Shown: positions 3,341-38,779 of the stretch, one piece after another
Layout: each line of letters opens with the position of its first letter
How positions within the stretch are numbered: the first letter of the stretch is position 1
Source of the DNA: Sphagnum compactum
Lineage: Eukaryota
DNA length: 64,000 nucleotides
Assembly: GCA_965153455.1 (NCBI GenBank)
Contig: OZ234493.1
Span: 19,582,213 to 19,646,212, forward strand
Direction of reading: 5' to 3'
The notes under the pieces: generated by a model
The model's database searches: none
What the model was told of the DNA's origin: nothing
Seen by the model: the letters and a program-made list of their open reading frames with translations, nothing else
Translations under genes and position numbers: made by a program

Positions 3341-5070
3341 ATGGAGGATGGGTTGTATTTGACGAGTAAGGAAATCAGTCACGGAGGTCGAATCCCACGC
3401 AAGTTTACGCAGGATTCACAGGGAATTGTGGAGGATGGGTTGTATTTGACGAGTAAGGAAATCAGTCACGGAGGTCGAATCCCACGCAAGTTTACGCAGG
3501 ATTCACAGGGAGCTGTGAAGGACATATCACCCCCTCTGGAGTGGTATGGTGTGCCTGAAGCCACTCAGAGCTTAGTTGTTATCATGGAGGATCCTGATGT
3601 GCCTGAACCTGAAAACCCTATTGGAGTTCCTTGGGTCCACTGGTAAATATTTCTCAGTACTCTTCTGTCATGATCTCTGGCTATAGCCATCGTAATATAA
3701 CCATATTTGTGTAAATCTGCAAACTGTGTCGTGTGTCGTGTGTGTACCTCATGAATTCTTTGCATGTTTGCCTTTGATTTTGCTTGGCATTGATCTCTTG
3801 CTTACCATCCTGTGCAATGTACTCTAGTCTTGTATCAAAGATTTGTGATGGTTAGGTCATTGGGCATGGTGGTGAAGTCTACATTGCAACCTGAATTTTT
3901 TTCCTCATTCTAGTATGTTGTAGTGTTTCAGAGCTGCCACAAAGTTGATGAGAAAAAAGGGGAAAAACTAGTAGGATTTCATTTTAAAATGGCTTCTGGG
4001 TTTTTTCTCTCTTGTGTTGTTGTGCAGGGTAGTGGTCAACATTCCGCCTACACTGAAAGGTGCATCAATCCTTGAGGATCTTCCCCCCCCATTGTTGATG
4101 ATGCATGTTGTGTTGAGATGTATAGTTGTACTACAGAACCCAGTTCTGTGTTTGGCAAAGAATGCTTAGGCAATTTTGTGCCTTGGTTGAGCTATATATT
4201 GGGGTATTGTCTTTGTTGCAAACAAGGGAAGTTTGTGGAGTCTTGAAATCTCTACAACTGAATTGTTACATTTCTGCTTCAGGTCACTTAGTAATTTCAT
4301 GTGCCTTAAGGTCCCAGCAAGCCAAACACCATAACAGGTAATGTTGGTGAGACATGGAATATGATGTGAGAAATTATTTGGGTTCTGATTGTGGAGTTTG
4401 TGATGACGCAGGTTTGCCAGCAGGTTTCACTACAAAAGAGGTAGATAGTGATCATGATGATGAATTTGGAGAAATTCTGGAAGGGGTGAATGACTTCAAG
4501 GTGCCTGGATACAAGGGGCCGAATCCTCCTGCAGGACTTCATCACTACAGCATTAAGCTCTATGCTCTTGACACCAAGCTAAAAGTTAGCCGCAAGGTAA
4601 TTTACCCATCTCTTCTCTCACTCCCTGAACCCACAAGCATCTGGCTAATCATGTCAGACATAATTCAGCATGTTTAAGAGCTCAGTTTAGTATCAAGGTC
4701 ATGGGTAGATTAGGTATAATGTGGAATCTTAATCTCTGGCAACGGCATTGATCTGTGACTAGCAATGTCTGAGATCTATATATGTGAAATTAATTGGTTC
4801 CAATTTCCAAGCTCTGCATGCTGATTTATGCTGCTGACTATTTCTTTGTTTTTATCTGAATGCAATGTACAGCCCTCACGGGACAAAGTGTTGGATGCCA
4901 TGAGTGGCCATATTTTGGATGAAGCAGAACTCATAGCAACTTACGGAAAGGAACATCATCCAACAGGTCATCATGAAGGTGATGCTCCTCATGGAGCTTT
5001 TTCAGGGCATTCAGAGGGGAAGGGTGGTGGGAAGGGTGGTGGTAACACAATGGGTCAATTGCACCGTTAA
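3341..5070 (+). CDS. PEBP family protein, bacterial-like YbhB/YbcL type (4 exons)
   Basis: Exons 3341-3642, 4028-4059, 4412-4596, 4873-5070 join in frame via GT-AG introns. Motifs: ISPPLEW, MEDPDVP, PWVHWVVVNIP, EGVNDF, GYKGPNPP, HHYSIKLYALD, GHILDEAEL. Confidence 0.92.
3342..3511 (+). repeat. Perfect in-frame tandem duplication (period 87 bp) in PEBP exon 1
   Basis: 83 identical bases at 3342-3424 and 3429-3511; EDGLYLTSKEISHGGRIPRKFTQDSQG occurs twice. Confidence 0.95.
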
Positions 5071-8000: not shown

Positions 8001-8307
8001 AAGTTGTTCTTACCGGGTACCCTCCGGGTATCACAAAAGGCATCCGGAAGGCCCTCGGGTGCGGCCATTACACTTAGTGTGTGACGGTCACCTAGTACGA
8101 GAGCGGCGGGTAGTCCCAGGATATCGACGGTCACTGGCGGAACATATATATATCCATTTTGGGACTATTGACACGTGAGTCGCCACTTCTGTGGATCGAT
8201 CTTCCTTTATAGGCCACTCTGGTTACAAACTCGTAAAGAACAGATATCAGCCGTGGATTCCATCACCCTGACTGACACTCTTACTACTTGTAACCGTCCA
8301 TGGTCTC

Positions 8308-15040: not shown

Positions 15041-17297
15041 TGTGAAGGGGGATTATTATTTTCGATGTTTTCATAAATTACTTGCCTCTATCCCTAGAGG
15101 CATCCTAGTCCTTTGTCTCATGAGGTGGTTTGGTTGTTTGATGCTCTCCATTGTTATTTCCCTCCATTGTTATCTAAAAAAAATATTTTTATTTTCCTAT
15201 TTGTTGTATTCCATGTTTTTATTTTCATATTTATTATAATATTAAATTTTAAAAAAAGGTTCTAACACTTTATAATGCACCAACCAATGAAAATAATAGA
15301 AATCATTCTTGTGACTCTAACACCCTATAAAAATGCTTTTGTCCATGGTTTGATGATTCATTGCAAAAAAACTCTTTGTGCACATGAAAACAAAAAATCT
15401 TTTTTCTCATTTTTCTTCTCCTCCACAACATCCCAATCTTGAAATAAGCCAACAAAATATCACACTACCTCCACACCCAATTCCTCCATGCCAAATTTTC
15501 CACATTGCATACCTTGAACCCATGTCCAATCAATATCATGACATTCATCCCTTAAATCCACCCACATCATGACGATGTTTTATTGCAATCCAATCACCAG
15601 TATCATTTTACAATTGGAAGAGGGATCCATGCTAGTATTATTTGGTTCTTGATTCTAAAAGGAATTTTTTGGTCCTGGTTCTAAAACTTTTAATTTTTTT
15701 CAATGGAACCTTTGGTCTAGTCCTTGGACCGGTCCTTTGAATTTCTAAGACCTTTTGGTTTTTGTCTTTTCTTAAGAAAATTGAAGCTAAGTTTAATTTA
15801 ATATTAAATCTAGTTCCATCTCCATTACACAAAACAAAACAAAATTATTTTGTGTAATTTTATTAAATTTTTCAACTGGTCCATACAATCCAAAATAAAG
15901 ATTATATAATGTTAATTATGTACAACCAATTAAAATTAACTACTTGTGTCAAAAATATGGTCAAGTTGTCTTTTTTGTGGGGGACAAGTTTATACTTATT
16001 TACCTAGAAAAATTGAACCTATTCAAGAAAGGATGATACCCCATTTAGGTTTTAATTCAGTTGCCAAAAAGTCCAATTGCCCGGTTTGGTTCCAATGGTG
16101 TTACTAACAAAACTTTGAACGTCCATCCTGGATATAAGCCTAGAATTTGACCTAGAGCTTTGGATTTGAACCTAACAACAATCCATGCCACAAGTGATTC
16201 CCCCTAAATGGTGGGCATAACATGTATGACATGACCACAATGCAAAGCTCCTCTTGTGGGCAGAGTTTCAGAATTTTTTTCTTAAATTGCCAAAAGAAAG
16301 GAGTAAATTTTTGAGTTTTTGAGTTGCCAATAAAATCTATTTTCTTGCGTTGCACACATTCCGCCGATAATGTGCCTTACAGATCCACTTCAAAAATTGT
16401 GCCGGTGCTTTTACGCTGGTTACAAAATGGGTGGCAGGCGAGAACCGGGACATCGGGACACGGGCCTTGACCGCAGGTAAAACTAACTGCCCCCGGAGAA
16501 CAAACAGGACAGTCGTTGCACTGGAACCTTTCATCGAGGTTCCAGAATCTTCCCATACTCTCGCAAGCCGCCTCTGCGATGCCCGGAGCTCTGCCTCTTC
16601 TTCCCTGCCAAGATTCCCAGACTTTTGCCCGGCCCGACAAAAGCAGCAGCAGCAGCTGCGTAGCTCCTACGGAACTGTCCGCCTTGAATGCTCGTCCTCT
16701 TTGCACCACCTCTTTCCGAATATTAAGAGCTCGAACTAGATATGCCGATGAACATTAGGGGAAAATTACGAAAGGCAAGCACACATGATGGTCGAAGAAC
16801 ATGATGATGATGCTCCGCCCAGCTAATGTCCAACTCCATAGATTTTGCCTCGACTGCATGATTATGCGCATGTGTCTTGCATTCTGTTGACGTTTTGATG
16901 CCTTTGCAAATCTCACCTCTGGTGTCAATTTCTTCTCTCCGTGATCATCTCCTGATTAGGCCCCCAACCATTTCAGCTCCCACGTGTACTAGTCGTCCAT
17001 TTGAGGTCCAGCTTCCGATTTGGTGCTTTCTCTTTGTCGATGCTTGTTCCGTTCTATCTTTGCTCTGTGAAGATCACTGCTCTAAATTTGTGTCGGGTGG
17101 AAATCCTTTTCTTATGATCATTTCCCTTTCTTTCAACTTCGCCACACTTGAGCAGCTAGATTGCTGCGTAGCATACATAGAACTTGTCCTCAGCTCATAG
17201 CAGCATTTGTTGCTTACGCAAACCCAATTCCTTGTTTTCCATAGATGCCCACATCTGAGCTGAAGTAGTAAGAAAACTAAGGTAGCTGCATCCAGAG

Positions 17298-19262
17298 ATG
17301 GGCGATGGGGGCGAATCAGAATGGGATTCAGCTACTTCTCATAGGTCGAACTTGCGGGGTAAATTCAAGGAGCAGATCAGAAGATTAAAATGGACCAGAG
17401 TCAATAGAGGCAGAGGCCGCAAATTAGGCACTGCCTGCTTGAGTTTCAGACAGCGTTGTCAGCCTGGTTCTAGTAGTCGCTTAAGCTCAGATTCTCCGGA
17501 AGCCGGGAAAGCTCCAATTTGTAGAGCAAACGAAGCTTCAGATCAGTCTGTAGTGCTACCGAGACTTCACTCTGATGATAGAGGAAAGCGCATTGATCAA
17601 CTCGAGAACAACATAGAGGAGTACTGTGGCGAAGTATCGTGTCTTCCAGCAAATGCAGATGGCACAAATCCTAATTCTCGGGTTCTTGAAAGATGTGGTA
17701 ACAGGGAGGAGACAGCGAATTGCAGCTTGGTTAATCAGATCGTGGGCTGTCATGATTCTCCGATCCTTCATGGAAGTTCCGGCAGTCGAGGGCCAGGGGA
17801 GGAGAAAATCAACGGAATCCGACAGCAGAATAACAAATGGGTAGTTGAGATGCGGGTGGCAGGGAAGGAGAAGCAGCACTTACTGGGGTTCAAACGAATC
17901 TGGCTGGGCACCTACTACACATGGGATGAAGCTGTTCGTGCTCGCGACGTGGGTGTGTTCTATTGCGGCAAAGAGCCTCGCCGCTACTTCTCTCCTGCTT
18001 ATATACCCTTTCTCCCTTCCCTAGAGACACTCATTGTCTCTAGAGAACCTGACAAAATTTCAGCAAGCATAAAAGCTCTCGCTGCGAAGAACTCGACAAA
18101 GCCAGACTTGGGTACCTCTGGTGCTCCTCCTTGCAGTCATCTCTGTCATTCCTGCGCAGCAGCTCAGGTACTGCAGCCCCAGACCATATCACACACAGAT
18201 AATGGTCTCGCTAGTTTGCATCAGGCTCAGACTGAAGGCTTCAAACACTTCCAGGATGTGGATCAAGATCGAAGAGCAGAAGGTGCCCTTCCCCAGGATC
18301 AGCTTGATCAAGCTCAGAGGGATATGGAACAAGCTCAAAGAGCAGCCTGCGCCATTCCCCAGGATCTTGAACATGTTCAGAGGAATATGCAGGATCAAGC
18401 TCGAAGAGCAGCCTATGCCATTCCCCAAGATCTTGATCATGCTCAGAGGGCTATGGTTCCCACTCCACAACAAGCCTTCCCAAATGCAAAGGAACTGGAT
18501 CAATATCAGAACCCACTGTATGATCAGAGAGGTAATGCACAAACCCTAGAAGGTGAAGCTCAAGATCTGGATCAACTAGCCTTGACAAACGTGTTGCCTG
18601 AGGCCACTACCGAGGAAGAAGATTGTGGCTATGGCTGGGACGTCATGGACCATGTCCTCAGACACATGAGTTGCAGTGCATCTGATCAGAATATTGGGGA
18701 TCAATGTAGAAATTTTGTAGATGATTTTGAAGTAGACTACTGGGCTCAGTGGGAAGACCAGAGAAATGGGTGGGAGTTAGGTTTGCTGGATCCATGTGAG
18801 ACTGCGAAATTTGAGATGGGAAATTCATGGCAATATTGCCAATTTGCATCAGGTTCAGTTGTTGGAGCTCTCATGAATCAAGTTGAAAAAGAAGACCATG
18901 CATCAAATTGCATCTTTCCACTTGTGCCTCCGATTTCAGATAGCACAACTGCATACAATAATGTAGATGGATCAAATTGTGTCATTCCACATTTTCTGGC
19001 TCAGATTTCAGATTGCACAACTGAATACAATAGTGCACAGAAAGAAGCTCATGGTCAGAGTTTTGGGGATCATGTGTTTGAATCTGATCAGATGGAAAAT
19101 GGGAGTGAAGACTGTAGACGTTCACCTGGGCTTCGAGAGACAGATTGGAGAATGGACCTTGTGCAGGGTTTGGATCAGATGCAATTTTTTTCACCCTTAT
19201 GGGATGAATTGAATGAGCCAGATTTCGAGCAGGCATACATCAAATGGTTGTCAAATCAATGA
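17298..19262 (+). CDS. Single-exon AP2/ERF-domain transcription factor-like protein (654 aa)
   Basis: Long ORF. AP2 domain at ~17805-17996: INGIRQ...KWVVEMR...RIWLGTY..WDEAVRARDVGVFYCGK. Acidic C-terminus ending FFSPLWDELNEPDFE. Confidence 0.85.
   Translation: MGDGGESEWDSATSHRSNLRGKFKEQIRRLKWTRVNRGRGRKLGTACLSFRQRCQPGSSSRLSSDSPEAGKAPICRANEASDQSVVLPRLHSDDRGKRIDQLENNIEEYCGEVSCLPANADGTNPNSRVLERCGNREETANCSLVNQIVGCHDSPILHGSSGSRGPGEEKINGIRQQNNKWVVEMRVAGKEKQHLLGFKRIWLGTYYTWDEAVRARDVGVFYCGKEPRRYFSPAYIPFLPSLETLIVSREPDKISASIKALAAKNSTKPDLGTSGAPPCSHLCHSCAAAQVLQPQTISHTDNGLASLHQAQTEGFKHFQDVDQDRRAEGALPQDQLDQAQRDMEQAQRAACAIPQDLEHVQRNMQDQARRAAYAIPQDLDHAQRAMVPTPQQAFPNAKELDQYQNPLYDQRGNAQTLEGEAQDLDQLALTNVLPEATTEEEDCGYGWDVMDHVLRHMSCSASDQNIGDQCRNFVDDFEVDYWAQWEDQRNGWELGLLDPCETAKFEMGNSWQYCQFASGSVVGALMNQVEKEDHASNCIFPLVPPISDSTTAYNNVDGSNCVIPHFLAQISDCTTEYNSAQKEAHGQSFGDHVFESDQMENGSEDCRRSPGLRETDWRMDLVQGLDQMQFFSPLWDELNEPDFEQAYIKWLSNQ
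18250..18480 (+). repeat. Coding tandem repeat, ~21-aa units, in the AP2 gene
   Basis: ALPQDQLDQAQRDMEQAQRAAC / AIPQDLEHVQRNMQDQARRAAY / AIPQDLDHAQRAM; DNA core CCC(C)AGGATC..GATCAAGCTC. Confidence 0.85.
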
Positions 19263-21980: not shown

Positions 21981-22479
21981 CTAGTTCGCTGTTTTGCATT
22001 GAGATATTTCACACACATGCAGCACATGTGATTTATGACACGGTCACTTCAATGAAATCTTCCATTTGGTTTAGGGTTTCCTTGGTTTAGGATTTAGGGT
22101 TTAGGGTTCCCTTGGTTTAGTACCATCTAGTACCCTTCCATTTGGTGGTAAGTTAGGGCCATTACTGTCCTGTCCAAATTATGTGGTAGATAAAGCTCGG
22201 GCAGTAGGCCAGAGTGAACCAGCCCCCATGACTGCACCAGTTGACTGTTCTGTCCATAGGATGGGCTGGATGATTTGCCTCTTTTTCATTCACCTCTTTA
22301 CCTTACGTTAACCAACATTCTACCACAGTCAATCTTTTTTGGCTGCTGACCTTTGACCATTTCTTTTCATTGCCAAATTTTTCTCAACCCTGACCTCCAT
22401 ACTACCCACCCACCTAGCTACTATGCTGAACTAAATCTTAGCCCTGCCTATTAACTAAGAATTAATCAATTACTTACCT

Positions 22480-23190
22480 TGGCAAAACTTTTTATCTCCT
22501 CTTGGCTAAACTTATATTTCTTCTTGGCTAAACTTATAGTTTTTTTGGCTAAACTTCTATCTCTCGGAAAAACCTATATATTTTATTGGCTAAATTTCTA
22601 TCTCTTGGCTAAACCTATATATTTTATTGGCTAACTTTTATTTCTTCGTTAAACTTATATATATTTTTGACTAAACTTCTATCTCTTGGCTAATTCTATA
22701 TTTCTTCTTGGTTAAACTTATATTTCTTGACTAAACTTCTATCTCTTGGTTAAACCTATATATCTTACTAGCTAACTTCTATTTTTTGTTTAAACCTATA
22801 TTTCTTATTGGCTAAACTTCTATCTCTTGGTTAAACCTATATTTTTTCTTGGTTAAACTTATATTTTTTGGCTAAACTTCTATCTCTTGGCTATACCTAT
22901 ATTTCTTCTTGGCTAAACTACTTTTTCTTGGCTAAACTTCTCTCTCTTGGCAAAACTTATATCTTTTGGCTAAACTTATATTCTTTTTTGTTAAACTTAT
23001 ATTTCTTGATTAAACTTATATCCCTTGGCAAAACCTATATATCTTATTAGTTAAAATTATTTATTTTAGTTAGACCTATATTTCTTTTTGGTTAAATTTG
23101 TATATTTTGGCTAAACCTATATTTCTTCTTAGCTAAACTTCTATTTCTTGGCAAACTTTATATATCTTATTGGTTAAACTTATACCTAAT
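22480..23190 (+). repeat. Left subterminal minisatellite, ~20-22 bp unit
   Basis: About 30 degenerate copies of TTGG(C/T)TAAAC(C/T)T(A/C)TAT(T/C)TC. Confidence 0.9.
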
Positions 23191-24249
23191 TCCTACTCTA
23201 GAAATTAACCAAAAAGTAAATACATTTTTCAGTAATGCCATTTTAATTATTTGCAAAAGATCTATTTATTGGCAAAACCTACCTACTCACACATCATTAT
23301 ACCTACCTATGCACTTGCAAATTATGGACTTCAATTGCAAAAATTATAATGTAAAATGTGGGTATTGCAATTACGAGAATTGTTTTGGCAGCAATCCTTT
23401 ACCTCCACTTTGGACCATTTAATGCAAGATGTACTTAATTTAATTAAGGAATAGGCTTGATAAATTTAGAGTTAAAAAAAGATCAAACATTTATGAATAT
23501 TTGCACAATTTTTAATACTAATCAAAATCAATTTTAGGTTGGATTTTGGGGGGCAAATTTGGTCAAATTTTCACATACAAATACTTGCAACAGGATGCAT
23601 TTTATCTCTTTTGAAGGTGAATGAAAAAAGTCTCAAGTTGAAGTGACCGCACTAAAAGGAAGAGAATAAACTCTTATTTCATTCATTTAATTTTTTCTTT
23701 TCATTGTGTTTCAATTTTAATTCTTCACTCAATCTTAAAAAATTATTTTGTATGACATTTGTATATGTTTATATAGTTATTAATTTTTATGTCATTTACC
23801 ATTAAAATTGTTTAGGTTTATATATAAATTTTTGGGGCAATTAGTTTTAAACTCTAAGGCTAATGCTTCCATTCATTATAAATTTTAATTGATTATTTTT
23901 AAAATTCAAAACATAGTTGTTATAAATGGCTTTTGTATTCCATTTGTAGTTTTGTTTGTATAATCATTAGGTTGAAAACATTTCTCATTAGGATTATTTA
24001 AGGTTTTAAGTTTAAGGTTTAATGAAATTGTGTGTTGATTTATTTAGGTTGTGTTTTCAAATCAAGATACAACTCCTTTGAATGTGATATGATCCTTTAA
24101 CGTCAACGGTATGATATTTTTTCGTAATCATTTTCTTATGTTTTTTTATTGTTCCTAATTTAAGGAAATCAATTTCTTTGGATGGTTTTAATACGGTCAT
24201 CAAATTTCACTAAAAATGTTCCATGTTTGATATATGGATTTAACATTTT

Positions 24250-24850
24250 GGCCTCCCATAGATAGTGTGGATTTAAGGTCATAATGCTAATATTACATTT
24301 TGTCACCCACATATAGTGTGCATCTTTAAATTGTCATGTAGGTATTGCATTTCCCTCTCCCATATATAGTGTGGATTATGGTCATAATGTGGGTATTGCA
24401 CTTTCCCCCCCACATACAGTGTGCATCTTTAAATTATCATGTAGGTATTGCATTTAGGGCTCCGACATATAGTGTGGATTAAGGTCATAATGTGAGTATT
24501 GCATTTTCCCCCCATATATAGTGTGCATTTTTAAATTGTCATGCAGGTATTACATTTAGGGTTCGCACATATAGTGTGGATTAATGTCATAATGTGGGTA
24601 TTGCATTTTTTCCCCCATATACAATGTGCATATTTAAATTGTCATGCAGGTATTGCATTTAAGGCTCCCACATATAGTGTGGATTAAGGTCATAATGTGG
24701 GTATTGCATTTTTCCCCCATATATAGTGTGCATCTTTAAATTGTCATGTAGGTATTACATTTTTTTTTCCATAAATAGTGCAGTTTGTTAACTATCATGT
24801 GGGTATTACATTTAGATTATCCATAGATAATATGGATTTAAAATTTACAA
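24250..24850 (+). repeat. Tandem array of alternating ~51-bp A/B units (~103-bp dimer)
   Basis: ATAGTGTGGATTAAGGTCATAATGTGGGTATTGCA alternates with ATAGTGTGCATCTTTAAATTGTCATGTAGGTATTGCA. Motif positions 24341, 24392, 24444, 24495, 24546, 24597, 24649, 24700, 24751, 24802. Confidence 0.92.
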
Positions 24851-26779
24851 TTATGGCCAAAAACCATATCATATGTTCTCCATACTTAGCATTTAAGGTA
24901 TTATGTGCATGACTGTAAAGGGTTTAGATGAAGAATACAAATTAGGTACTTAAAACATGTACATTTGTATTAGTATTGAATATGACAATTAACATGTAAT
25001 TCAACATATTGCAAACATAAATTTTTGGACATCAATATCAATTTATTGTTTTTTCTTGTATAATCAGCTCAAGGCATAGTTTCAAACATGGGTCGTGTTT
25101 CAAAATCTCAATATATTGAGATTCAAAACCCAAAGAAGTCACGATTTAACAAAATGGACTTGGTGTGGAAAAAAAGATGTTCGACATGGAGGGGCACATA
25201 TAATCGAGGTTGAATGTGCATACATCCCACATGCACGAATCTCGGAATTTCTAAATGGTGAACAAAGCCATGAAGACTCCCCAATGGAGTGGAACATTTA
25301 TAAGCGGGTACCCTCACAAGAAAATGTAAAAATGCCAAGAATCCAAAACTGCCTCGACCATATTTGGTATGATATTTTATTATTCACTTTTGTTATATGG
25401 AACTTGTTTTTTAACTTCATATTGTACCAAACTTTAGGTCCTAAATTGATTTTACATTTTGTAGGTATACATGTGGGTATGGGCCAGAAGTTAATTGTGA
25501 AGACCCAAATCACCATCGATCCATTAAACGGGGTTGTTTAGTTCAATTTTCGATTAGGTGATTGTACACATGACCCGAAGTGGCAGAGATAATCTTCTAC
25601 CATTGAGCTCATACATGGCCAATGGTGAGCTTGCACTTGACAAACATGACCTTGATTCCATTGTGCGACCATCTTTTTTTGCCCCACAAATGTCACAAGC
25701 CCTTAAGGACCACATATGGACCCGATTGGGTTTAGGCTACATCGTCAAGTAAATATATGATAAACATAAGGCAATATGGTGGGCTAGAATCAATGCAAAA
25801 GAAGCGATGATAAGGGATGATTTCATTAGACAACAAGATATTACTTACTTGGATTGCAAACACAAAAAAAGGAGTTGACGTTTACACCAAAATCCTGTCG
25901 CACATGGGCATTTAGTCATCTAAATGATGTGTTTTAGTTTCAAGATGCAAGTGAGGATAATGGGATTCATGTCCCATTCATAATAAGGATACATACCCCA
26001 TTTTAATTGCAAGCCAGGGTTTCATGAGGTGATAATGGGGCAATCTCAATGGATGCCACTTTCGGCACCAATGATGTGAAATTTCATTTGTTCACATTGA
26101 TGGTGTTTGATGCACATCACAATGGAATGCTGGTTGCATGGATCAATACAAGCCTCCAAACATGCGATGATTTGGTGGAATGGTTAACTCCTTTGAAAAC
26201 AAAGTTTCTAAGGAAGAACCCTAAATGGAAACCTTCATGTTTCATCGTTGATGATGCTCCACAAGAAGTACGAGCATTGCGGTGAGTTTTATTTTCATTT
26301 TACCTTTTTTTGAGCTTTTATGTACATGCAGCCATTTCAAAATTTCATCCCACATTCTCCATTTTAAATAATGTTATTAGTTGAAATGATAGTAAATTGG
26401 AATTTTATGCATGGTTAGGATTGTGTGGGGTGATGATCAAGTGCCCATTTACCTTTGCACGTGACACATCTTAGAGGCTTGGTGCTTATGTTCGATGGAA
26501 AAAATCAAAGACAATGAAGTGCGACATGTAATATTGGATGACCTTCACACCGTCATGTATATGCCCATTGAACCAAGTGAAAGCATTGAAGCCTTCATGA
26601 TTTGTGGGAGAAATAAGATTGAAAGCTCCACCCAACATTTACTCGATGATTCATGGATTCGATATTTTTGGACCTATTATTTCCAAGTTGGTATGTGAAT
26701 TAACTTTCAATCCATTATTATTGTTGCACCATGTTGTGCATATCCCAAAATATTCACTCTTTGAATTAAGGTAAAAACA

Positions 26780-27090
26780 CCAATGGTGGATTTAGTAATC
26801 CCATGTGGGTGCAAAATGCAATACTCACATTAAGACCTTAATGTGGGAGCACTAAATGTAATACTTGCATGACAATTTAAAGTTGTACACTGTATGTGGG
26901 GGCAAAGTGCAATATTCACATTATGACCCTAATCCACACTATATGTGGGAGCTTTAAATGTAATACATGCATGATAATTTAAAGATGCACACTAAATATG
27001 GGGAAAAAATGCAATACCCACATTATGACCCTAATCCATATTATATATGGTAGAAATAATTGCACGACAATTTATAGATGCACACTGTAT
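26780..27090 (-). repeat. Inverted copy of the 51-bp array inside a transposase intron
   Basis: TGCAATACCCACATTATGACCCTAATCC and ATTTAAAGATGCACACT are reverse complements of the 24250-24850 units. Confidence 0.85.
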
Positions 27091-27507
27091 CTTGTTATAG
27101 ATTTGTGGATGGTGGGGCTTCGACAAGTGTCACATTCAAACCAAGACACACAAGCATCAATTGAGTCTTACCATGGGGCATTGAAACGTTGGTTCTCTTT
27201 GGAAACAAAATGGCTTCAAGGTCGACGACTTGATTGGTTAGTGTGGAGACTCACGACAACAGTTGCAATACATGCACACAACTAAAATGAAGAAACACAG
27301 GTTCATAAAAAAAAGGTTGTGGAACGCATTGTGAAAACAAATGTTGAAAAGGCCACATTGATCCCTCACACCAATGTCACCCATGGGATAGATGATTCGA
27401 ATGAAACTGGCCATGCATGGATGGTACGAAGCCAACAACATTTGAATATGACATATAAGGTCCCACTTCTTTTCACTAAGTATGCTTGTTGCACATGTGA
27501 ATGGGCG

Positions 27508-30000
27508 TGTGAGAAATTCTTGCACTCCTTCCACATGAAGATATGCACTCACAGACTCACTTGAGGGTGGAATTACTATGTAGTTGTATTCTAACAAGTT
27601 AAGGTGGTTCAATGTAATGTAATGAAATTCATTAATAATCTCATGCGTTGTGTTCACTTGGAAGATACCAAAACATTGTGGGAGAACCAAAACTCACCAT
27701 GATGGAATGTGAAGGAACATTATGTTGAGGTTAAATCCATGTTCACGCTTGATGATTGAATCCCCTTCGTTCCATTCGTCACAATATCCTCATACAACCT
27801 CCTAGTCTAACATGCATTGGGTTTTCGAAAAGCTAATATTAAAGGAGCAATGTTACAAAGTATTAGAAGTTTTTATTTCTGAAATCAAGAATTATGCCTC
27901 GAAACAAAGAAACTAATTTGACCAAATTTGAGGAAAAAACAGACAATTTCAACCCCCTCTACTTCCGGCAAGTGTAGCTTCCGTGCAGCAAACCCGATGA
28001 TGCTGAAATTTTGGGAGAACCTTTTACACCTCCTAAACTGAAACTGTTCAAAGTTTGAAACAAATCCAACGGTGGATTTGAGAGGAAAAACTATTTTAAA
28101 TAAGAATCCACAGGCTTGTTCATGGAAATCCTTCCATGAACCCCACTACAACTACTTGCCACACACAACTTCCTTCCATGCTCTTTTGTTTGCACACATT
28201 TTTTTTTCATGAACAACACTTTCTCACACATAAGAACTAATTCTTCTCTCACACACTCATTCTCTTCTTTTTTCCTCCGAAAAACACACAAGATACCACT
28301 TTCTTTGGTAAGCCTCCCATACCCCCTCCTTGAGCTTATTCTCCTTGTCCAATGGAAGTTTTGAAATCTTTCCCTCCAATTAATGGCCTCCTCATCCTTC
28401 ATGAACCAACGAGAGTCCAGAATGATTTTTCTTTTCTATGGAATTTAAGATGAGAATCATTATGCCCAATGAAACACTAAAAATGTTCTATTTTCTAATC
28501 AAATAGGATGATAATCCTCATGACCAATGGAATTGGAGGATTCATCCTTTTCCTTATCTTAAACATCTTGATGGGGTTCTTGAGCTCAATCATTGTCAAT
28601 TTCGTCCGTTTGAATTAACATCCTATTTCTTCATCCTAATTATTCTAAGTAACTAAATATTGGGATAATTTACTAGTAGTAATAAGTAACCATCCTTGAG
28701 CTTCCATTTGATTAAATCAACTCAACGGTAGTAATAACCTTTTCGTGTACCATTTACTCTTTTAATATTCCCTAGTTATTTTTTACTGTGTACTAAATAA
28801 TTATGTAGTACATAGTAAATTAGAATTAAATTTGGAATTACAAGGATTCCCATGTACTTCTAGATCCACCATCAATATTAAGGCTTCACGAATTTGTTGG
28901 AACTAAGATGTCCGGGTTTTCACGAAGTTCTGCCGTCATTGCCACGCCTTATGCCTACCCTAATCTCTTGAATAAAAGCAACGACCCCCTTCGAATGTAA
29001 ACGCTAAATTGTTTTGGCTACCTTTCGGTTTTTGTTGATGCATGTGAAAATTTAGTCATGGCGGATGATGTTGCTACGCCCTCGAATCCTCCAATTGCAC
29101 CAATAGAAAATGAAGAGCTTGAAGAAGCACCGCTTGACGTAGCATCACTTGACATGAATATCTTTCAACGGTCGCGTGAAAAAGAACCGTCCAGAAGAGT
29201 GGTGCGCATTCGAATCGATCGTTTGGCATGGGATCGTCGATTGTCTCCTAACCCACATGCTTTAGCAATTTATTTAGAATTTGTTCCTGCTCGTGGAACT
29301 GCGCCAGAAAGGTTTAAAGAGTGTCAATGTAAACACGACGATGTTCGTCTTCATTGTCGAACTTGGGTTCCTGGTGATGGCCATTATCATTGGCCACGAG
29401 GCCCAATCAACCCCCTTTCCATGGAGCATCGAACCGAATACCTAGCTTGCACCATTCGTCGCATTCAGGATTTTTTGCAATTGTCATCTATCCCCTCTAA
29501 GTCGTTTACTAATTTGTAATTCACCTGAGGCTACTCAGGTGAAAATGTTAATACTTGAGTTTGATTTTGATTCTATTTAAGAATCTGATAGAAGTGAAAA
29601 CTAAAAAAAGATGTATTGGGACTGCATCCTAGAAATCTTACAAGTACATCATTAATGTTTGAAGATTATTCTACAGACTAATTTAATATTGTCATGGCAA
29701 AATGTTAATGTTAGTTATGGGCTTGTATTCCCAATATATTAGTAAAATCAAATCTAATTCTACATCCTTTTTCACCTCTCTACAACCTAAAAGGATAATG
29801 CACTTTAAAAGGTTTACGTAGGTCCTAAAATTAACTAAACGTTACATCATCTTAAATAAAGAAGTTCTCTACACTTGGAAATATCCAAAGGCTAATTCAC
29901 CTATTAATAATTATTATTTGGAGGTTTATAAGGATTCAAATCATTATTACTAAGGAAAGTTATGGAACTAAAGCTTAACAATTTGTTGAATTATAATCCA
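27508..30000. mobile_element. 2.5 kb LTR-like insertion nested in the SWIM domain
   Basis: TG...CA ends flanked by TGGGCG (27502-27507, 30001-30006). Removing it restores E-W-A-L-R-G-N-L-C-K-H. Segment 27508-28924 has LTR-like TGTGA...TCAC(G) ends. Confidence 0.75.
29058..29519 (+). CDS. Hypothetical 153-aa protein inside the nested insertion
   Basis: Intact ATG-to-stop ORF, more GC-rich than its flanks, acidic N-terminus and Cys/His cluster (CQCKH...HC...HYH). No family recognised. Confidence 0.4.
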   Translation: MADDVATPSNPPIAPIENEELEEAPLDVASLDMNIFQRSREKEPSRRVVRIRIDRLAWDRRLSPNPHALAIYLEFVPARGTAPERFKECQCKHDDVRLHCRTWVPGDGHYHWPRGPINPLSMEHRTEYLACTIRRIQDFLQLSSIPSKSFTNL

Positions 30001-32790
30001 TGGGCGTTGCGTGGAAACTTGTGTAAACATCAAGTTGCCATTTTTCTTACATGTATCGATTTCACTAAAGAAAATATCATTCAATATTGTGGGACATGGT
30101 ATGGATATGATTATGCAGGTTTTGTTGCCATGTTTGCAGACCCTACCTATTTGCACATTTATGATAATGAATCTGATGATGAAGAGGTCGATGAAGATCA
30201 CTCTGAAAAACCATGGGTTGTTGATATGTGCGAGCTTATGAGATCGGATGATACCTCCCCCAATGTGGAAAAAGAACAAAGATCACAACCAACCTTCAAG
30301 TTCATCCACCCCCACAGAGAAAGCGCTTGTTCGAATGGGTGACATAATGCAAGAAATCATCAATGAAGTCAAAGAAGGTGGGGTTCAACTCATAGACCAC
30401 ACCACATCATTGTTGCGTGTTATTACAACAGATGTATAAGGTATTCGCCTTTCCAAAGTGAATGAAGTCATGCATCCCAAGCATGGTATTTCATTACATC
30501 AATGATGGACTTGGTAATTTAATGCACCGGATGAAAGATTGGCATGAGACGATGTTAGAACATGGAAATATCCGTAAAAAGAGGGCTGATGAGTAAAAAA
30601 AACACAAATTTGTTTGTACCTATCCCCCATTTTAAATTTCCATTACTAAAATGTGCATCATATTACAATTGTGTCAAAGAATAGATTATTTATGTGTTAA
30701 TGTGTTGATTTTTCTATCAGTGAACATATAGGGTTTGAAAGTTAAAGTTACATTATTAAGGCTATAGAACACATATCTTCTAAAACTCCCAAACAAGAAT
30801 ATTTCACTCAAACATCATATAAAGGTGGGTATAAAAAGTCAATTGTACAATAATCACCAGGTTAATACATGGGTAATGCTTACCCATCTTGTTTCTTGTG
30901 GCATTTAATTGGTATTGCATATAATTTTATATCTTTCATGGGTATTAATCATGTTAGATGAAGGTATTGCAAATTCCCTACTCCTTCCAGAGGGGCATTT
31001 GACCACTTAATGCAGGTATTGTCCTAACTTTTTCATTATAATGATGATTTGCTTTAGTTATAAATGTCATTTGGATATTTCTTATTGCATTTGGTCCATT
31101 AAATGTAGGTATTGCATTTGGTGAACAAGATTCCCCTAAGTAAACCTAGATGATGAAGGACTAAGATTTTGCAATACCTACATAATAAATTTTTATTAAC
31201 CAAAAGGGGGCTTTTGGTGAGGGTCCACAATATAAATTTATGTAGGTATAATGATAAGCTTACTACTATGGTAGATTGGTAATATTACATTATAGTAATA
31301 AAAGAAAAATTACCTTAATGATCACCTTAACACTCATTATAAATGATGTAGGTATTGCAAATTAAGGTTTGGAAAAATTAGGACACGCTCACAGTCAATG
31401 CTTACACCTAAAGATGAAGGTATTGATAATGGTTAATTTTTTAAAAATAGGTATCTTTTGGATACGTCTTATTGTTTTTATAAAATAAATGCATGTATTG
31501 CATTTGGTAAAAAAGATGATATTACATAACCTTAGATGACAAGGGAATAGGTTTTTGCATTATGAAATCAAGGGGGGTTACATAACATAGATTTACCTAG
31601 GTATTGCAATTTGGGATTTAACATATGGTGATAAGGTACGATATTACAAATTGAAAACTTTAACCTTCATCATGTATACATTACAACCTAATGCATGCAT
31701 AACTTTCAATTTGAAAAATTAAGCAAACTTATATAATGAACCTTAAAATGTTGAGTTAAAACATTTTTATCTAACAAAAAATCCTTACATTGACCCTAAA
31801 TTAAATAAACACAAAAAGAATTGGTTGCATAACTTTAGTGGTGGAATTTAATAATTTTTTAAAAACTAAGTGTTAAACCTAATTTTGGAATTATTTTTGC
31901 ATAACCCTAAATTGTGTACATATTATCAACTTATGTTTTAGACCTAATTTGGGGAGGACCCCAACCAGTGGGAAGGTTTTTTTATCATTCATACCTTTGT
32001 CACGGAATCATCTTCACTTTCCTCTCTTGTCATGAAAAAGAAAAGAAAAATAGGAACCTTGTTAGATATATGTGTGTATGTGAATACATAAATTCACTTA
32101 AAAAAATTTCATGAAAATAATATAAATGTTAAGAAAAAGGTTACCTTAAAACAATTAATGACAAAAAGGTGGGCTTAATTTCCTTAAACCCAATGTCCCC
32201 CCTATTTATTTGAAACATATATTAGGCAAAAGTTTAGATTAGGGTAATGGAACATGAACATGAGTTGGTTGATATGTGGGTATTGCAAATTTGAAATGCT
32301 TTATGGAGAACCCAACGATAAATAAGAGAAGATCAAAAGTTTGCAATACGTGCATAGACAAATCGATTTATGCACCAAGGGGTCTTTTCATGAAAATGGG
32401 CAATGTAATTATATAAAAATATTAAATTACATTTTTTCGTTAAGGTTATTGTGTGAGCATTTCATGATAAGGATAATGAAGGTATTGTTTAAATGCTCTA
32501 GCATGGCCGCAAAATGTGCTAACCCTATTAAATGAAGGTATTGCTTATTTGGTTTATAGTAAATGTAATCCATTCGTAATGGATGGGGATATTGTGTAAC
32601 ACGGCATAAGATTAACCCAAAATCTAAAAATCCCAAAATTAGAGGTCAAAATTAAAACAAGTGGATTAATACAAAAGTGTTCAAGTAACCACACTATAAA
32701 AAGGATGGTGACAAAAATATATCATTCTAAATTCATCTATAATGGTTCGATACAAAATGGTGCATATGTGCATTAAAGTTATATCTATAA

Positions 32791-34297
32791 TTATTCCTCC
32801 TCCGAGGATGAACTAAAAGGAATGCCCATACTGGTGCGATATTCTGCTGAAATTTTTACAGCTTTTGCTGCATGGTGATGAGTAAATAGTTGACGATGTT
32901 CAAGCACAAGTTGAATTGCATTTGCAACAAAAGCTCCCTTGTTGTGCCCCGAAGCCTAACACAAGAAAACAAAAAAACAAATTACATTCCAATGTTAAGA
33001 TGCAAACAATGTTTATATATATATATATATATATATGGAAATATATCGCCCATGAATGATTTCAGAATCATGATACTTGGATATTGCATCCATTTCTTTT
33101 ACTCGGTTACATTTACTAGATTCCAATGTCTAATTCTGAGTGCTTCATGCAACTTTCAAAGGCTTTGCATAAGCAACTTTGCTTGCCCGAATTGTCTCAA
33201 CAAGGTTCTCGCCCTTTTCAAGGCGTGCCCATGCACTTTGTGGGATGAACCCACCCCCCATGCTGGAATCCCAATGATGCCCAACAAGATTTTGGAGGCT
33301 AAAAGTACCAACAAAGGCCGTTTAACTTGTTCCATTTGTTGCGCTTGGGTTTGGAGTTCATCCCATTCTAAAGTTTTTTTTTTCATTATATCGAAAGCTT
33401 TCTTTTCATTCCGCTTTCGCCTTGCATGTGGGTTGCTCAAAATTTGAGCATTCATAGCATGGTGATTTTGTTGCCTTGGTCCCCCAACACGAGTAGAAGG
33501 ACCCAGATTTGCCTACCTCCATGTGAAGCCCGTGTTTGTTGTCCAAATGCTGACGAAGTAACCATTTAGTCACATAAGCGTTGGTTCATCCATTGATCTT
33601 ACACTTCCACCTTGACCTTTTGTGCACCCATTTTGCATATTCCATTACATGATTTGGTGGTACTTCTACTTGATCATTTTCATGTGAAGCCACCGGAGCC
33701 CCTACAAGAACAACATTCAAAATCAAACCAGAAAATAGTCCTTAATAATGATGAAAGTATTGCAAACAAGCTAACAATAAAAACTTACAAAATATGAAGG
33801 TATTGCAAATAGACCAGCAAGAAAACCCTACACAATATGAAGGTATTGCAAATAAATTAGCAAGAGATTTTTAAAAATATGGAGGCATTACAAACTAGCA
33901 AATAAACATTAAATACAAGGAGGGCATTGCAAATAGGCTAGAAATTAAAACCTTCAAACAATAGGGATATTGCTTGGAAAAAATTGGGCAAACAAATACC
34001 CCATCCCCATTTTCAAATAAAGAATGAAGATGGGGTTTAAGGTTTGGATTGGGATTTTTTATTCGTAATGTGTTGCATTACACTATTAAAAACCCTATCA
34101 TGTGAAATGTATCATCCATCACAACAAATTTACTTTCAAAAATAGGAGTGGGATTAAGGTTTACCTTCAAAAGTAGGAGTATAGATGATAATTTTTTTTT
34201 CCACTTCAATTTCCTCTTCATTTGCTACAACATTCACTTGTTGATTATCAACAGTCACCTTTTTTTGGCGTTTAAGTTTCTTCCAGGGATGTGCCAT
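32791..34297 (-). pseudogene. Second MULE gene: 3-exon C2H2 zinc-finger protein, convergent with the transposase, decayed
   Basis: Exon 1 34297-34165 (MAHPWKKLKRQKKVTVDNQQ...TPTFE, phase-1 GT) joins in frame to exon 2 from 33701 (GAPVASHE...WKCKING*TNAYVTKWLLRQHLDNKH...NPHARRKRNEKK...). Exon 3 32955-32791 is open (ASGHNKGAFVANAIQLVLEHRQ...SSSSEEE*). Stop at the second Cys position; frameshifts in exon 2. Confidence 0.72.
33745..33980 (+). repeat. ~43-bp tandem repeat in intron 1 of the zinc-finger gene
   Basis: ATGAAGGTATTGCAAA-like cores at 33756, 33799, 33842, 33884, 33923, 33966. Confidence 0.8.
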
Positions 34298-34849
34298 CCT
34301 ACAACAAAAGCACTCAAATCCTTAAACAACAATCAATCCAAAAAAGAAAAACAAAAGCTTGGATCTCCCCAACAATAGCAATTGCCACCACTACCCAAGA
34401 ACTTCAAGCTCCCTTAAACAAATAATTGCAAAAGGGATAGTAACTTATTTTTCCAACTTGCTACAACTTTTTAATACAAAAACAACAACTTGAAACAAGA
34501 CGAATTATAAATTTAAATGTTCCCAATATCAATAATAAATATTGTTCATTATATTTAAATGCTTAAAAGCCCTATACCTTAGAAGTTTTATTTTCGATTA
34601 AAATGAATTATTATAGGCTAATTATAAAATTTAATTATTGTAACTATATTTTTCATTATAATCAAATTGAATTAATATAAAAATCATAAAGTTATATTAT
34701 TAAATTTATTTTTTATTATAATTATTTGGTTATATTCAATAATTATTTACATGATTTCATTATAAATAATTTTTTTATAATTGAAATTTTATTAATAATT
34801 ACATTAAATCTTGGGCATGACACGTGGTGCTTTTGTGTATAACAACTAA

Positions 34850-37085
34850 AAAAACAACAGAAGACGATGACAAGCCCAGATCTTGGTTCATCGTCGTCTT
34901 TTGCACTTGAGGAAAAAAATCAAGAGACGACAACAAATCGACAGGTTCGTTGTCATTTTCTGCACTTGAAAAAAAACCCAAGAGATGACAACGAGCCGGA
35001 GCCCCTTAGCTCGTCGTCATCTTTTGCATTTGAAGAAAAAAACCAAAAGACGGTGATGAGCCTCTCGGCTTGTCTTCATCTTTTGCACCTAAGAAAAAAA
35101 CCAAGAAATGACGACGAGCCTCCCGGTTCACTATCATCTGCTACACCTGAGAAAAAAACAAAGAGATGACAATGAGCTAGGGATGCTCGTCATCATCTAC
35201 TACACATGAAAAAAAAAACAAAAAAATGATGACGAGCTAGGGAGGCTCGCCATCATTTGCTACACCTAAGAAAGAAAACAAACAGATGACGATGAGCCTC
35301 TTGGCTTGTCGTCATCTTCTACACCTGAGGAAAAAAAACAAAGAAATGATGACGAGCTAAGGAGGCTTGCCGTCATCTACTACACATGAGGAAAAAAAAA
35401 AAGATGACGACGAGCCTTTCGGCTTGTCGTCATCTTTTACACCTGAGAAAAAAAACAAAAAGATGACGATGAGCCAGGAGGCTTGTCGTCATCTTCTACA
35501 CTTGAGGAAAAAACCAAAAGACGTTCATTGCATTCCTTGTTCTTTCCCTGCATTTTTCAACAGCTGAAGAAAACCAAATAAATGCAAATTGTTGTGGTTA
35601 TACTGTGGGGTGCTTACAATAGCCTAGTAGATTCATAGGGAAAGCTCTGAATGACCTCCATGAACAGGAGAACATTTTATTCTGTAGAGAAAGAGAAGTC
35701 ACTAGCAGTATAAAAACTTGCAAAGAAAGTCAGGGCATGAGTGAAATTTCTTCTCTAAAGAAGAATCAAGAAAGAAAAAACAAATTAAAGGACTCTCAAG
35801 AGTCCTTGTGCTCCAAATCTTTGCTTCCAATTGCAACAATTTTGAATTCGGCATGCAAAGTTGAGGAATGGGTCAACTTCAAAATTGTGCTAGCTGTGAA
35901 CTTTATAATGTTTGTGCACACATGCTTTTTCAGAAGTGCAATTCACATGACACAATGATGACATCCAATTACCCAGGTTGAAGCACTAGGATATGTTTGG
36001 GTTAGTCATGAAAGAAGCCTCAAGGTAAGAAAAGTCTTCAGACCTCACATGTTAGTCTATTCACACCCTTTATACTACTCCCTTTGTGTGCACGGAATTT
36101 GTCTATGCATTGGTTTCCTTGTGGTACTTTTACTTTCACACAATTGAAGCAAAACAACTGAAGACAACAATAAACCAGGATCCCGGCTCGTCGTTGTCGT
36201 TTTCTACACTTGAGGAAAAAAATCAAGAGATGACGACAAGCCTCTCGACTTGTCATTGTCTTCTGCACCTATATAAAAAAATGCAGAAATTGACAACAAG
36301 CTGGGAGGCTCGTTGTCATCTTTTACAATTGAAGCAAAACAACTAAAAACAACGACGAGCTAGGATCCCGGCTCGTCGTCGTCTTCTGCACTTGAGGAAA
36401 AAACCAAGAGATGACGAGGAGCCTCTTGGCTCATTGTCATCTTCTACAATTGAAGAAAAAAATGTAAAAAACGATAGTGAGTCGAGAGGTTCGTTGTTGT
36501 TTTCTAGAACTAAAGGAAAAAAAACCAAGGGCGACAACGAGCTAGGATTCCGGCTTGTTGTTGTCTTGTGTAATTGAGAAAAAAAACATTAAAAGGCAAC
36601 GACGAGCTGGGAGGCTCATCGTCTTTTGTGATTGGAGAAAAACAATCAAGGATGATGACGAGTTGAGATCCTAGCTTGTCGTCATCTTCTACAAATGAGG
36701 AAAAAAAACAAAGAGACGAGGATGAGTCGGGAGGCTTGTTGTCATCTCCTACAACCCAAGAAAAACCAACATCAAGGTTTTTTTTCTTGGGTTGTAGAGG
36801 ATGATGACAAGCCGGAAGGCTTGTCATCCTCTTTTGGGTTTCTATGTTTTTTTTTCATGAATTATAGAAGACGATGATGAGTGGGGAGGCTCGTCATTGT
36901 TTCTTGCAATGCAAGAAACAAAAATAGAAGACAAGGACGAAACACATTCATTGTTGTCTTTTGCCCTGGTTTCATAAGAAGGACAGAATACAACAACAAA
37001 CATTGCATTTGTTGTCATCTTCTGCCGTAATCTCATAAGGACAGTAGAAGACAAAAATGAGTGCAACATTCATAATCATCTTCTT
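34850..37085. repeat. Right subterminal array of ~58-60 bp hairpin units
   Basis: Consensus GATGACGACGAGC-(5-8 nt)-GCTCGTCGTCATCTTCTACACxTGAGGAAAAAAA; more than 20 decayed copies; interrupted by non-repetitive DNA at ~35525-36140. Confidence 0.9.
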
Positions 37086-38779
37086 TGCAAGGGAACAAAA
37101 GTGAAAAAGCCTTTTCAACATCGTTTTTTGTAGCACCGCTTCTGTTCTTGAGTGGTGGTGAGGTTTAGGGTTTTTGCTGGGGTGGAGCTAGGTAGTTGGG
37201 GTTTGAAATGCTTGGGCAGTCAAATAGATTTTTTTTATGGGTAGCCTTGAAGTAAGTGAGGGAAAAAAAAATGACCCAACCTCAATGCCTACAGTAGATC
37301 CAATAATTGGGATGAACTTGAGTTCATCCCAAATGGAATTGGTGTAGTCATGGGGGCTGGGTCACTCCGACTCGGGCAGTAGCGTTTACTCCACAAAGGG
37401 TGTGCATGTGCAGTGGAGCCGAACTTGGGCTTAATTCCAGTAAATCCCGTGGTGGAGGGTTTTATCATAGGTAAATATCTTACAAAATTTTATTATTTTT
37501 TGTTGCGTTGGGCTTCAAAATGTAAGAGCAAGATATAATCAAAATAAGATGAAATGTCCTTGTTAGGTTGTGGTCCATCCCCATTAAATCTTTTAAGACT
37601 ACAACATGTGCATTTTATGTTCTTTGAAGATCATAACATTCATGCATGCAAGGCCAAACATATCTTGACCAAAATTGTTTATGTTCTAATGTGTGTGTGC
37701 ATGTATATCATATTGTTGGGTATAGGTATTAGATGATCATTGGGCTGTAATGCATGGTGTCCTTATACAACAACCATTTCACTAGAATGCATGTTGATAA
37801 AATGGGGCCAAACAATATTATTGAGGTCAAAGTCAAACTTGACATGTAAACATAAGGTATGACATACACTATATGTATCACCATTCAACATCCACTTGAA
37901 GAACCTTAGATAAATAGCTACAAGTCTCTTGACATTTAAGAATGCATGGACATGCATTTTGGAATCATAGGCTTAAGGTCAATATCAGTTTCAAGATTTT
38001 GTATCTTGATTGGGGTGTGTTGGCTTTACACTACATTTGTGCAGGCTTGCACAATACTCTAAATAATGCATACATATCTTCAAGTGACTAACTTTTGTGT
38101 GCGTCGTAGGCAATCCAAGTGGAAGATGGCGAGAAGTTGAAATTGTTCATGGACATGGTTAAAAAAATAATCATCTAGAGTGGTAATTCAACCCCGTATA
38201 TGGTGACACATCACATTGGTATGTTTTAAGCTTAAATGTTCATGATATTCAAGTCCTTTTTGAAAACCATCACATATTCAATCCATGTTGTAGGCACCCT
38301 AACTTGATGTTTAATGCAAATGTGTAACCTTAAACATAATAACATGCAACTTCTCTTAGAACCTTAGATCTACGACTTGCACTTTGATGAGGTATTTTTA
38401 ACATGTTGTGATGCAGAAAACTTTAACAACTTGCAAATTCATTGAACATCTTGGTAGCAATGGTTGGTGAGGTGAAGTGAGTGAGGTGCTATTACACTTG
38501 TGATTTTCCAACAATAGTTCCATTCATGCCAAACCTAGTGAAATCCCCATGAAACTTAAGAAATTAATGTTTGTGTATTGTAATGAGTATTGAGTCCCAC
38601 ACATGTACATTTTAAGTTTTTAGCATTGCAAATGAAAATGTTACAATTTCAACTTTGCACCTTGAAGCTTGAAATTAAGACCCTAAACCAACCAAAATGG
38701 AGTACACAGTGACCATTACAAAAATATGTGGTCATGTTTAAACCATACAAAAAGTTTAGAATACATTTCCACTGAGACA

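Follow-up and report, generated by a model that had tools for sequence, protein, structure and literature searches.

A short motif amplified in the non-coding DNA of a two-gene moss Mutator-like element family: a candidate site for self-recognition

Introduction

Sequence-specific anti-silencing by transposon proteins has so far been shown in only a few Arabidopsis cases, and empirical support for it is described as 'confined to context-specific cases' (PMC12973397). According to the account in PMC5735166, the VANC21 protein binds the motif YAGTATTAY in the non-coding regions of VANDAL21, where tandem repeats have amplified the motif in the VANC and VANB introns and upstream of VANA; VANC6 uses other motifs, and the domains named for VANC proteins are DUF1985 and DUF287. 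Here we analyse a 64-kb stretch of DNA from the moss Sphagnum compactum (the window, to whose positions all coordinates refer), in which a Mutator-like element (MULE) with a transposase gene and a second, accessory gene carries many copies of the 9-mer GGTATTGCA in its non-coding DNA.

The likeness to VANDAL/VANC systems proposed in the initial annotation of the window holds for the layout of the motif, which lies upstream of the transposase, in introns and in tandem repeats, and fails for the protein domains and the termini of the element. As in VANDAL21 (Hiun), a MULE carries an accessory gene and a motif of ~9 bp is enriched in its non-coding DNA (PMC5735166; PMC10398659); the motif is likewise amplified in tandem within introns and upstream of the transposase gene, in arrays that vary between copies (PMC5735166). 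The two cores are also similar (AGTATTAC versus GGTATTGC/GGTATTAC), which we treat as a coincidence. The host, however, is a moss, and its accessory protein has a C2H2 pattern and no match to DUF1985 or DUF287 (10 proteins and 28 family members searched at E up to 1), which makes it at most an analogue of VANC. Degeneration of the terminal inverted repeats (TIRs) is described as common in VANDALs (PMC10398659), whereas the TIRs of the moss element are clear. No divergence of the motif was seen among the moss subfamilies that were sampled.

The subterminal motifs of En/Spm TnpA are 12 bp long. TnpA is an element-encoded, sequence-specific regulator that reads many repeated short sites within its own element, the kind of binding that is proposed here for the moss element, and is linked to transposases in a recent preprint (bioRxiv 10.64898/2026.08.24.746577). 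Its sites are subterminal and part of the transposition substrate, whereas the moss motif is internal, 0.5-3.5 kb from the ends; the moss element is a MULE and not a CACTA element, and the moss candidate protein is not transposase-derived. AtMu1c, a MULE protein, is reported to bind cognate copies, lower their methylation and activate them (bioRxiv 10.64898/2026.08.24.746577), again resembling what is proposed here. It binds TIRs, however, and AtMu1 as portrayed in that preprint has no accessory gene, while the moss element has a second gene and TIRs devoid of the motif. A protein and short-motif module opposing silencing, comparable to the one proposed for the moss element, has also been described for the plant mobile domain (PMD-C) proteins MAIN, MAIL1 and MAIL2 with M1M and M2M (bioRxiv 10.1101/2024.09.27.615353); the same source reports that PMD-C is also encoded by DNA transposons and says that its structure resembles the DUF1985 of VANC. 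Only one of 28 moss family members touches a PMD model (PF10536, E 0.058; 12.6 bits, cut-off 34.9); homology is unsupported, and a plant mobile domain identity for the second protein was rejected.

Results and discussion

A motif amplified in the internal non-coding DNA of one element

The host of the motif is a MULE of 15.2 kb, nested insertion included (Table 1). All 17 exact copies of GGTATTGCA that had been picked out by eye were recovered at the same positions and strands, 15 on the plus and two on the minus strand (27010, 31170), against an average of 0.54 and a maximum of 2 in 100 dinucleotide-preserving shuffles; low-complexity words aside, this is the most frequent 9-mer of the element. 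With up to one mismatch allowed, 36 matches were found where 17.4 are expected. The 19 one-mismatch matches, 13 of them within 23361-33980 and six outside, include the variants named in the initial annotation, that is AGTATTGCA (24495, 26817, 33756), GGTATTACA (24546, 24751, 24802) and GGCATTGCA (33923). Against a background made up of 104 kb of locus flanks and the 48.8 kb of the window that lie outside the element, the motif is confined almost entirely to the element: the 8-mer GTATTGCA occurs 23 times within it and not once in the remainder of the window, and the 28 GTATTRCA cores of the 64-kb window all lie at 23362-33843. The window search also bore out the impression that no exact copy lies outside the element or in its nested insertion (27501-29999); the insertion is free of the motif, with no core between those at 27264 and 30912.

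The motif is longer than nine nucleotides. Its consensus is ATG-N3-GTATTGCA-WWT, i.e. ATG-N3-GTATT(G/A)CA-W-W-T; there are 30 such extended sites in the element and two outside, with 23 on the plus and seven on the minus strand. A count of non-coding against coding copies, which the initial annotation had called for, places 27 of the 28 cores in non-coding DNA on an approximate reading of the exons, and the exception, at 27264 on the minus strand, is without the ATG extension. Orientation is variable relative to both transcripts, which argues for a signal at the level of DNA.

Four internal non-coding compartments are occupied by the motif: the region upstream of the transposase gene, an intron of that gene, the spacer between the two genes and the first intron of the accessory gene. 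Tandem Repeats Finder (TRF) confirmed the carriers that had been described in these places, namely 51-bp A and B units, 43-bp units and single copies, the last also between the two genes. The A/B array in the transposase intron is polymorphic, since contigs of X2, X9 and X14 lack 275 nt at a joint 26810>27086, and the protein fragment P0076 reads across a much shorter intron at the position of this inverted array. Decayed motif copies in the 43-bp array are GGCATTACA at 33884 and GGCATTGCA at 33923; in a four-run contig comparison covering the best-supported 40 of 4405 differing places, position 33886 is T in every aligned contig, restoring GGTATTACA from the window's GGCATTACA.

The motif is not terminal. 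In the window, the cores come no closer than 1154 nt to the left end and 3526 nt to the right end, and in six other mapped elements the corresponding distances are 518-2565 nt from one end and 762-1179 nt from the other. Both the TIRs and the two subterminal arrays of the window element are without it.

A high-copy family with one motif in unrelated repeat units

Parts of the stretch occur in 20 of the 24 listed sequencing runs, which comprise moss metagenome and several coded organisms; none covers half of it, and no run is registered as RNA. Contigs of four runs that align along the whole element with at least 80% likeness number from 5,126 to 28,009 per run, indicating that the family has a high copy number in at least three coded organisms. 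C>T and G>A changes together account for 1277 of the 2933 differing places in X3, which is how methylated repeats usually show.

Family loci were retrieved via the finger gene (the accessory gene, described below) from moss-derived metagenome contigs. A scan with a narrower alignment of finger-protein fragments (A2) gave 68 loci totalling 601 kb, 55 of them non-redundant, and the exact 9-mer was present in 51 and the core in 53 of these 55. Seven elements with both ends mapped, the window copy included, contain 99 cores in 62,076 nt, whereas their flanks contain a single core in 103,874 nt; the motif is thus not common outside the element, whereas an equally common motif would have counted against the initial interpretation. 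Every one of the 18 members in which both genes were detected has 7-14 cores between the genes and 0-2 in the finger-coding span, and clusters are found again inside and upstream of the transposase gene and in the finger gene's 5' intron. Array copy number varies between copies, and the intron array is missing in some. No alternative amplified word appeared among the top 8-mers of 14 motif-poor or divergent loci, which look like truncated copies; the low protein identity of some loci is due to a replaced 5' region and to decay.

The repeat units that carry the motif are of several types, identified by TRF as 43 bp, a 43-bp variant (in L039), 71-73 bp, 51-bp A/B, another 51-bp unit (in L041), 106 bp and 129 bp. 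In five loci (L041, L054, L056, L057 and L062) the 5' region of the finger gene cannot be aligned to the window and contains a different intron repeat, of 71-73 bp, with the same motif. We compared units by local alignment with the motif masked, against 300 shuffles in each case. The 43-bp unit showed no similarity to the 51-bp A/B units (261 shuffles scored as high), to the 51-bp unit of L041 (258) or to the 73-bp unit (80), nor did the 51-bp unit of L041 resemble A/B (168), while the two 43-bp forms were weakly related (8). At least three unit lineages, together with the dispersed sites, therefore have nothing but the motif detectably in common. The 14 dispersed sites, for their part, carry information only across ATG.AGGTATTGCA(AAT), ~14-17 nt, and their flanks are at background; this set was selected by motif match, without regard, however, to the GG that precedes the core or to the GCA and AAT that follow GTATT. 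The possibility, raised at the outset, that all copies trace to one repeat with equally conserved flanks is not what these comparisons show.

Beside the motif, a second conserved block, ATAGTGTGGA, is found in the 51-bp A unit (24244-24830) and in the 71-73-bp intron unit (L054:9730-9930, L057:9728-9919), and is absent from the 43-bp unit and the dispersed sites; it could be a second cis-element. The 11.8-kb contig L041 contains two copies of the finger gene in opposite orientation (1061-2900 and 7600-8250), each with a motif-bearing array of its own, made of 51-bp units in one and 73-bp units in the other, so that two family members are close neighbours here.

The accessory gene and its putative finger protein

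The initial annotation had read the host of the motif as a MULE with a second gene of C2H2 pattern, and both parts agree with our results, the first through a Pfam MULE domain and the second through the finger pattern in intact relatives. The finger spacing is C-X4-C-X12-H-X4-H. In the window copy a TGA stands in place of the second Cys codon (33586-33588) and a frameshift follows; with both genes broken, this copy is a dead relic. The 118-aa open reading frame (ORF) of the second gene has 87 representative homologs, all of them fragments of 39-183 aa. Intact fingers are present in P0133, P0114, P0128 and in ORFs of the family loci (e.g. L015:892-1575), with the canonical form C-X4-C-X3-Y-X5-L-X2-H-X4-H; the second exon has an open frame at L015:892-1575 and at L002:4762-5403.

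An AlphaFold2 (AF2) model of the protein places a beta-beta-alpha unit at residues 23-56 and a helix at residues 81-124 (mean pLDDT 65.7). Searching this model against the PDB with Foldseek returned nothing at E up to 0.001, the ESM Atlas gave only sub-threshold C2H2-like leads (best score 0.89), and a scan of viral_contigs with the distant finger relative P0128 gave no match. DNA can be bound by one finger with a basic region beside it, as in the GAGA factor; given the residues that the moss finger protein has at the usual base-reading helix positions (see below), DNA binding by it is plausible but not evident.

A tentative docking site and its alternatives

Our preferred reading, which we hold tentatively and at somewhat less than an even chance, is that the motif is a docking site of the element's own finger protein for self-activation or anti-silencing, with the protein as a candidate analogue, not a homologue, of VANC. 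GGTATTGCA would then be the core of a ~14-17-bp cis-element belonging to one two-gene moss MULE family and multiplied mostly by tandem duplication in the four internal compartments. We infer that a protein binds the motif and that the accessory protein, with its single C2H2 finger and long basic helix, would be the one to dock on it; dense occupancy of the element's non-coding DNA might then act on chromatin so that cognate copies become, or stay, competent for transcription. The sites used by the transposase would be the distinct subterminal arrays. Since the motif is missing from the TIRs and the subterminal arrays, and its nearest copy is 0.5-3.5 kb from an end, we see the terminal repeats as concerned with transposition and the internal motif as a site through which the accessory protein would regulate the element. 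We find it conceivable though doubtful that the moss MULE has evolved, without common origin with the Arabidopsis VANDALs, a sequence-specific self-recognition in which the finger protein coats the 14-17-bp motif and shields cognate copies from methylation-based silencing or reactivates them.

Several observations weigh against the docking-site reading. On the side of the protein, the AF2 model is weak (pTM 0.37), the best Pfam zf-C2H2 match (E 0.0063) is below the cut-off and concerns one of 28 members, and the finger helix has A, W, L and Q/Y/R at the positions that usually make contact in textbook C2H2 fingers, residues that are hydrophobic and atypical as base readers. On the side of the motif, the co-variation with the zinc finger that might have been expected from the initial annotation was not seen: the sampled subfamilies, which differ by only 12-18% in DNA, all have the same motif. 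DNA identity between family copies is 82-88% over their whole length, non-coding DNA included, so that the family-wide motif is mainly one inherited architecture and not many independent confirmations. The 73-bp and 51-bp A units share ATAGTGTGGA (no shuffle of 300 scored as high), and hence not all unit types are independent. Finally, conservation was no higher in the motif than around it. In an alignment of 21 spacer sequences (window 30850-32650 and 20 loci) motif columns scored 0.934 and the rest 0.925, a value reached by 1292 of 5000 block permutations; parsimony-informative columns made up 21 of 80 in the motif and 396 of 1606 elsewhere, or, by base, 6/52 versus 154/1114 for A/T and 15/28 versus 242/492 for G/C. 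Even these figures have to be read with care, because the sites used for the alignment and for the information content were picked by motif match and their matched positions are conserved by construction.

Much of this would also be expected if the motif had no sequence-specific function and were a leftover of local duplications in the ancestor of the family, which we judge quite improbable. The high identity of the copies, the lack of excess conservation in motif columns and the relationship of the A/B and 73-bp units all fit such an origin, as does the 52-bp spacing of the first three intergenic sites, which is like that of a decayed 51-bp array. Neutral decay, however, should erase motif and flanks equally, yet the 14 dispersed sites keep their 14-17 nt next to flanks at background. 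Nor does a leftover sit easily with three unit lineages that have nothing else in common, or with the 10 cores in the 1.7-kb consensus of the spacer field, where ~0.1 would be expected by chance on an estimate from word length. The column pattern speaks neither for nor against function, as neutral decay of dead copies would give the same one. Within the core GTATT(G/A)CA, the G/A position has a shared substitution at all 10 aligned sites and the next C at four of 10, and TATT is nearly invariant; the G/A position is probably a deamination hot spot, as the cytosines of TGCA within the motif look to be.

Fingers of the WRKY/FAR1 type are known in MULE transposases, and the transposase itself might read the motif through an N-terminal zinc-finger domain for autoregulation, the finger protein having some other role. 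We consider this unlikely. In its favour, the largest arrays lie upstream of and within the transposase gene, and two transposase fragments of the family (P0094 and P0055) have a Cys...Cys...His...His stretch ahead of the catalytic domain, although neither matches a Pfam DNA-binding family at E up to 1. The deletion derivatives L039, L055 and L064 have no detectable transposase and keep the motif beside the finger gene (through which, however, these loci were retrieved). AtMu1c is a precedent in that this transposase is enough by itself to bind cognate elements, reduce their methylation and activate them, but the reported AtMu1 peaks are at TIRs (bioRxiv 10.64898/2026.08.24.746577), the very part of the moss element that, with the subterminal arrays, lacks the motif.

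The location of two arrays close to promoters, one upstream of the transposase gene and the other within the finger gene's 5' intron, together with the TATA-like stretches in the array units, raises the question of whether the motif is the site of a host transcription factor, accumulated by the element as enhancer or promoter modules that would give expression in a useful cell type. Sites of host factors are common in transposons. Here we think such an origin improbable: the largest dispersed field is downstream of both genes, and the host flanks are nearly devoid of the word (one core where Markov models predict 6.8-11.2). The latter count is itself unremarkable, as 29 of 300 permuted words were as rare, and depletion of the motif in flanking DNA was rejected on this ground. 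The words GGTATTGCA and GTATTGCA were not found in the literature searched, a search that would miss motifs given only as logos or tables and that had supplements and figures outside its scope. Searches on moss MULEs or anti-silencing, one of them poorly targeted, turned up no such system among the entries listed.

If the docking-site reading is true, a system of the VANC/TnpA kind would have been built on an unrelated protein in a bryophyte, and the strategy would be convergent and old. Should self-recognition against methylation-based silencing also hold, DNA transposons of land plants would have arrived repeatedly, and long ago, at pairing an accessory protein with an amplified motif of their own, which would then be no oddity of the Brassicaceae, and the finger protein and its motif would offer a new pair for the targeted control of plant epigenomes. 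Probes and constructs can be designed from the motif, the arrays and the intact finger ORFs as now defined. Even if binding fails, the analysis documents a MULE family with two genes and a high copy number that several moss samples have in common.

Element structure and genomic surroundings

An inverted repeat, a flanking direct repeat and the divergence of contigs together place the element at 22208-37370. Its TIRs form a 31-nt inverted repeat that is 90% complementary (22212-22242 and 37337-37367), and its termini recur in 30-odd related loci. The 12-mer CTCGGGCAGTAG flanks both ends (22196-22207 and 37371-37382), giving a target duplication of 9-12 bp depending on the placement of the termini, and contigs of three runs part from the window before 22207/22208 (54, 72 and 72 loose ends). 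In L019, the duplication around the related element is an exact 9-bp repeat (TGATTTCTT); in the other five mapped elements no clean target duplication was seen by eye. The element thus has the features of a MULE, with a MULE/MuDR-type DDE domain, TIRs and a target duplication near 9-11 bp, and no other copy of it was found in the rest of the window (blastn, 0 matches at E 1e-5).

Table 1. Coordinates of the element and of its genes, repeat arrays and motif-bearing regions in the window.
Feature	Position	Strand	Basis or remarks
Whole Mutator-like element	22208..37370	+	Inverted repeat, direct repeat, contig divergence
Left subterminal array, ~19-22-bp units, core GGYTAAAC, no GGTATTGCA	22478..23184	+	TRF; TGGCTAAAC 10 times
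Lone motif copy, 1.15 kb from left end	23356..23372	+	Motif search
51-bp A/B tandem array, period 103, 5 copies, 11 extended sites	24244..24830	+	TRF 24244-24762, 86% matches; sites 24336-24797
Degenerate multi-exon transposase gene	25080..30596	+	Exon limits are an approximate reading; MULE domain 26028-26285
Inverted partial A/B array in transposase intron, 4 extended sites	26803..27090	-	Inverted repeats I1-I20; TRF 26841-27050
Nested 2.5-kb insertion, other repeat family, no motif	27501..29999	.	8-bp duplication ATGGGCGT
Dispersed motif field between 3' ends of the convergent genes, 14 extended/core sites, 11 plus/3 minus	30906..32545	+	Motif searches
Second gene, convergent, single C2H2-type finger then long basic helix (predicted)	32794..34296	-	Minus-strand frames
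43-bp tandem array in first intron of finger gene, 3 intact motifs and decayed ones	33751..33931	+	TRF 33751-33865
Right-arm arrays, 59-60-bp palindromic units (GATGACGACGAGCC...GGCTTGTCGTCATC), no motif	34843..36900	+	Repeat searches

The catalytic domain of the transposase (26028-26285) matches PF10551 (E 7.9e-07, 29.9 bits against a cut-off of 27.6) and PF21056 (E 2.9e-08). Homologous protein fragments number 99, at 53-90% identity, and tblastn coverage of the gene extends over 25427-26791 and 30143-30514. Removal of the nested insertion, which splits it, restores a SWIM-like pattern (CxC...CxH) from a CxC at 27490-27500 and a CxH at ~30020; Pfam is silent on each half. Five contigs of X9 and six of X14 contain the joint 27500>30000, sharing eight letters, so that some family contigs are without the insertion. 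In all four runs the insertion has the highest summed contig depth of the stretch, which marks it as a repeat family of its own, and it carries a 172-aa ORF (29001-29519) without a Pfam family.

The two arms of the element are filled with unrelated repeats. The right arm (34843-36900) aligns poorly to other copies (~70-76%) and has the lowest contig depth. The left subterminal array, with units around TTGGYTAAACTT, shares the core GGYTAAAC with a separate 1.6-kb array of units around ATGGYTAAAC on the minus strand near the end of the window (61300-62900); the arrays at 22478-23184 and 61300-62900 have no blastn-level similarity, and no transposase was detected near the second.

A Pfam search of 32 flanking ORFs identified a PEBP (FT/TFL1-like) host gene only, and no second transposase; two ORFs of this gene, ~18 kb from the element (3122-4674, plus strand), match PF01161 (E 3e-12 and 2.1e-09). 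Closer to the element is a 658-aa open frame (17286-19259, plus strand) without a Pfam match at E up to 0.001. Some 90 bp outside the left end, at 22066-22120, are telomere-like repeats of plant type (variants of TTTAGGG with 7- and 16-bp periods).

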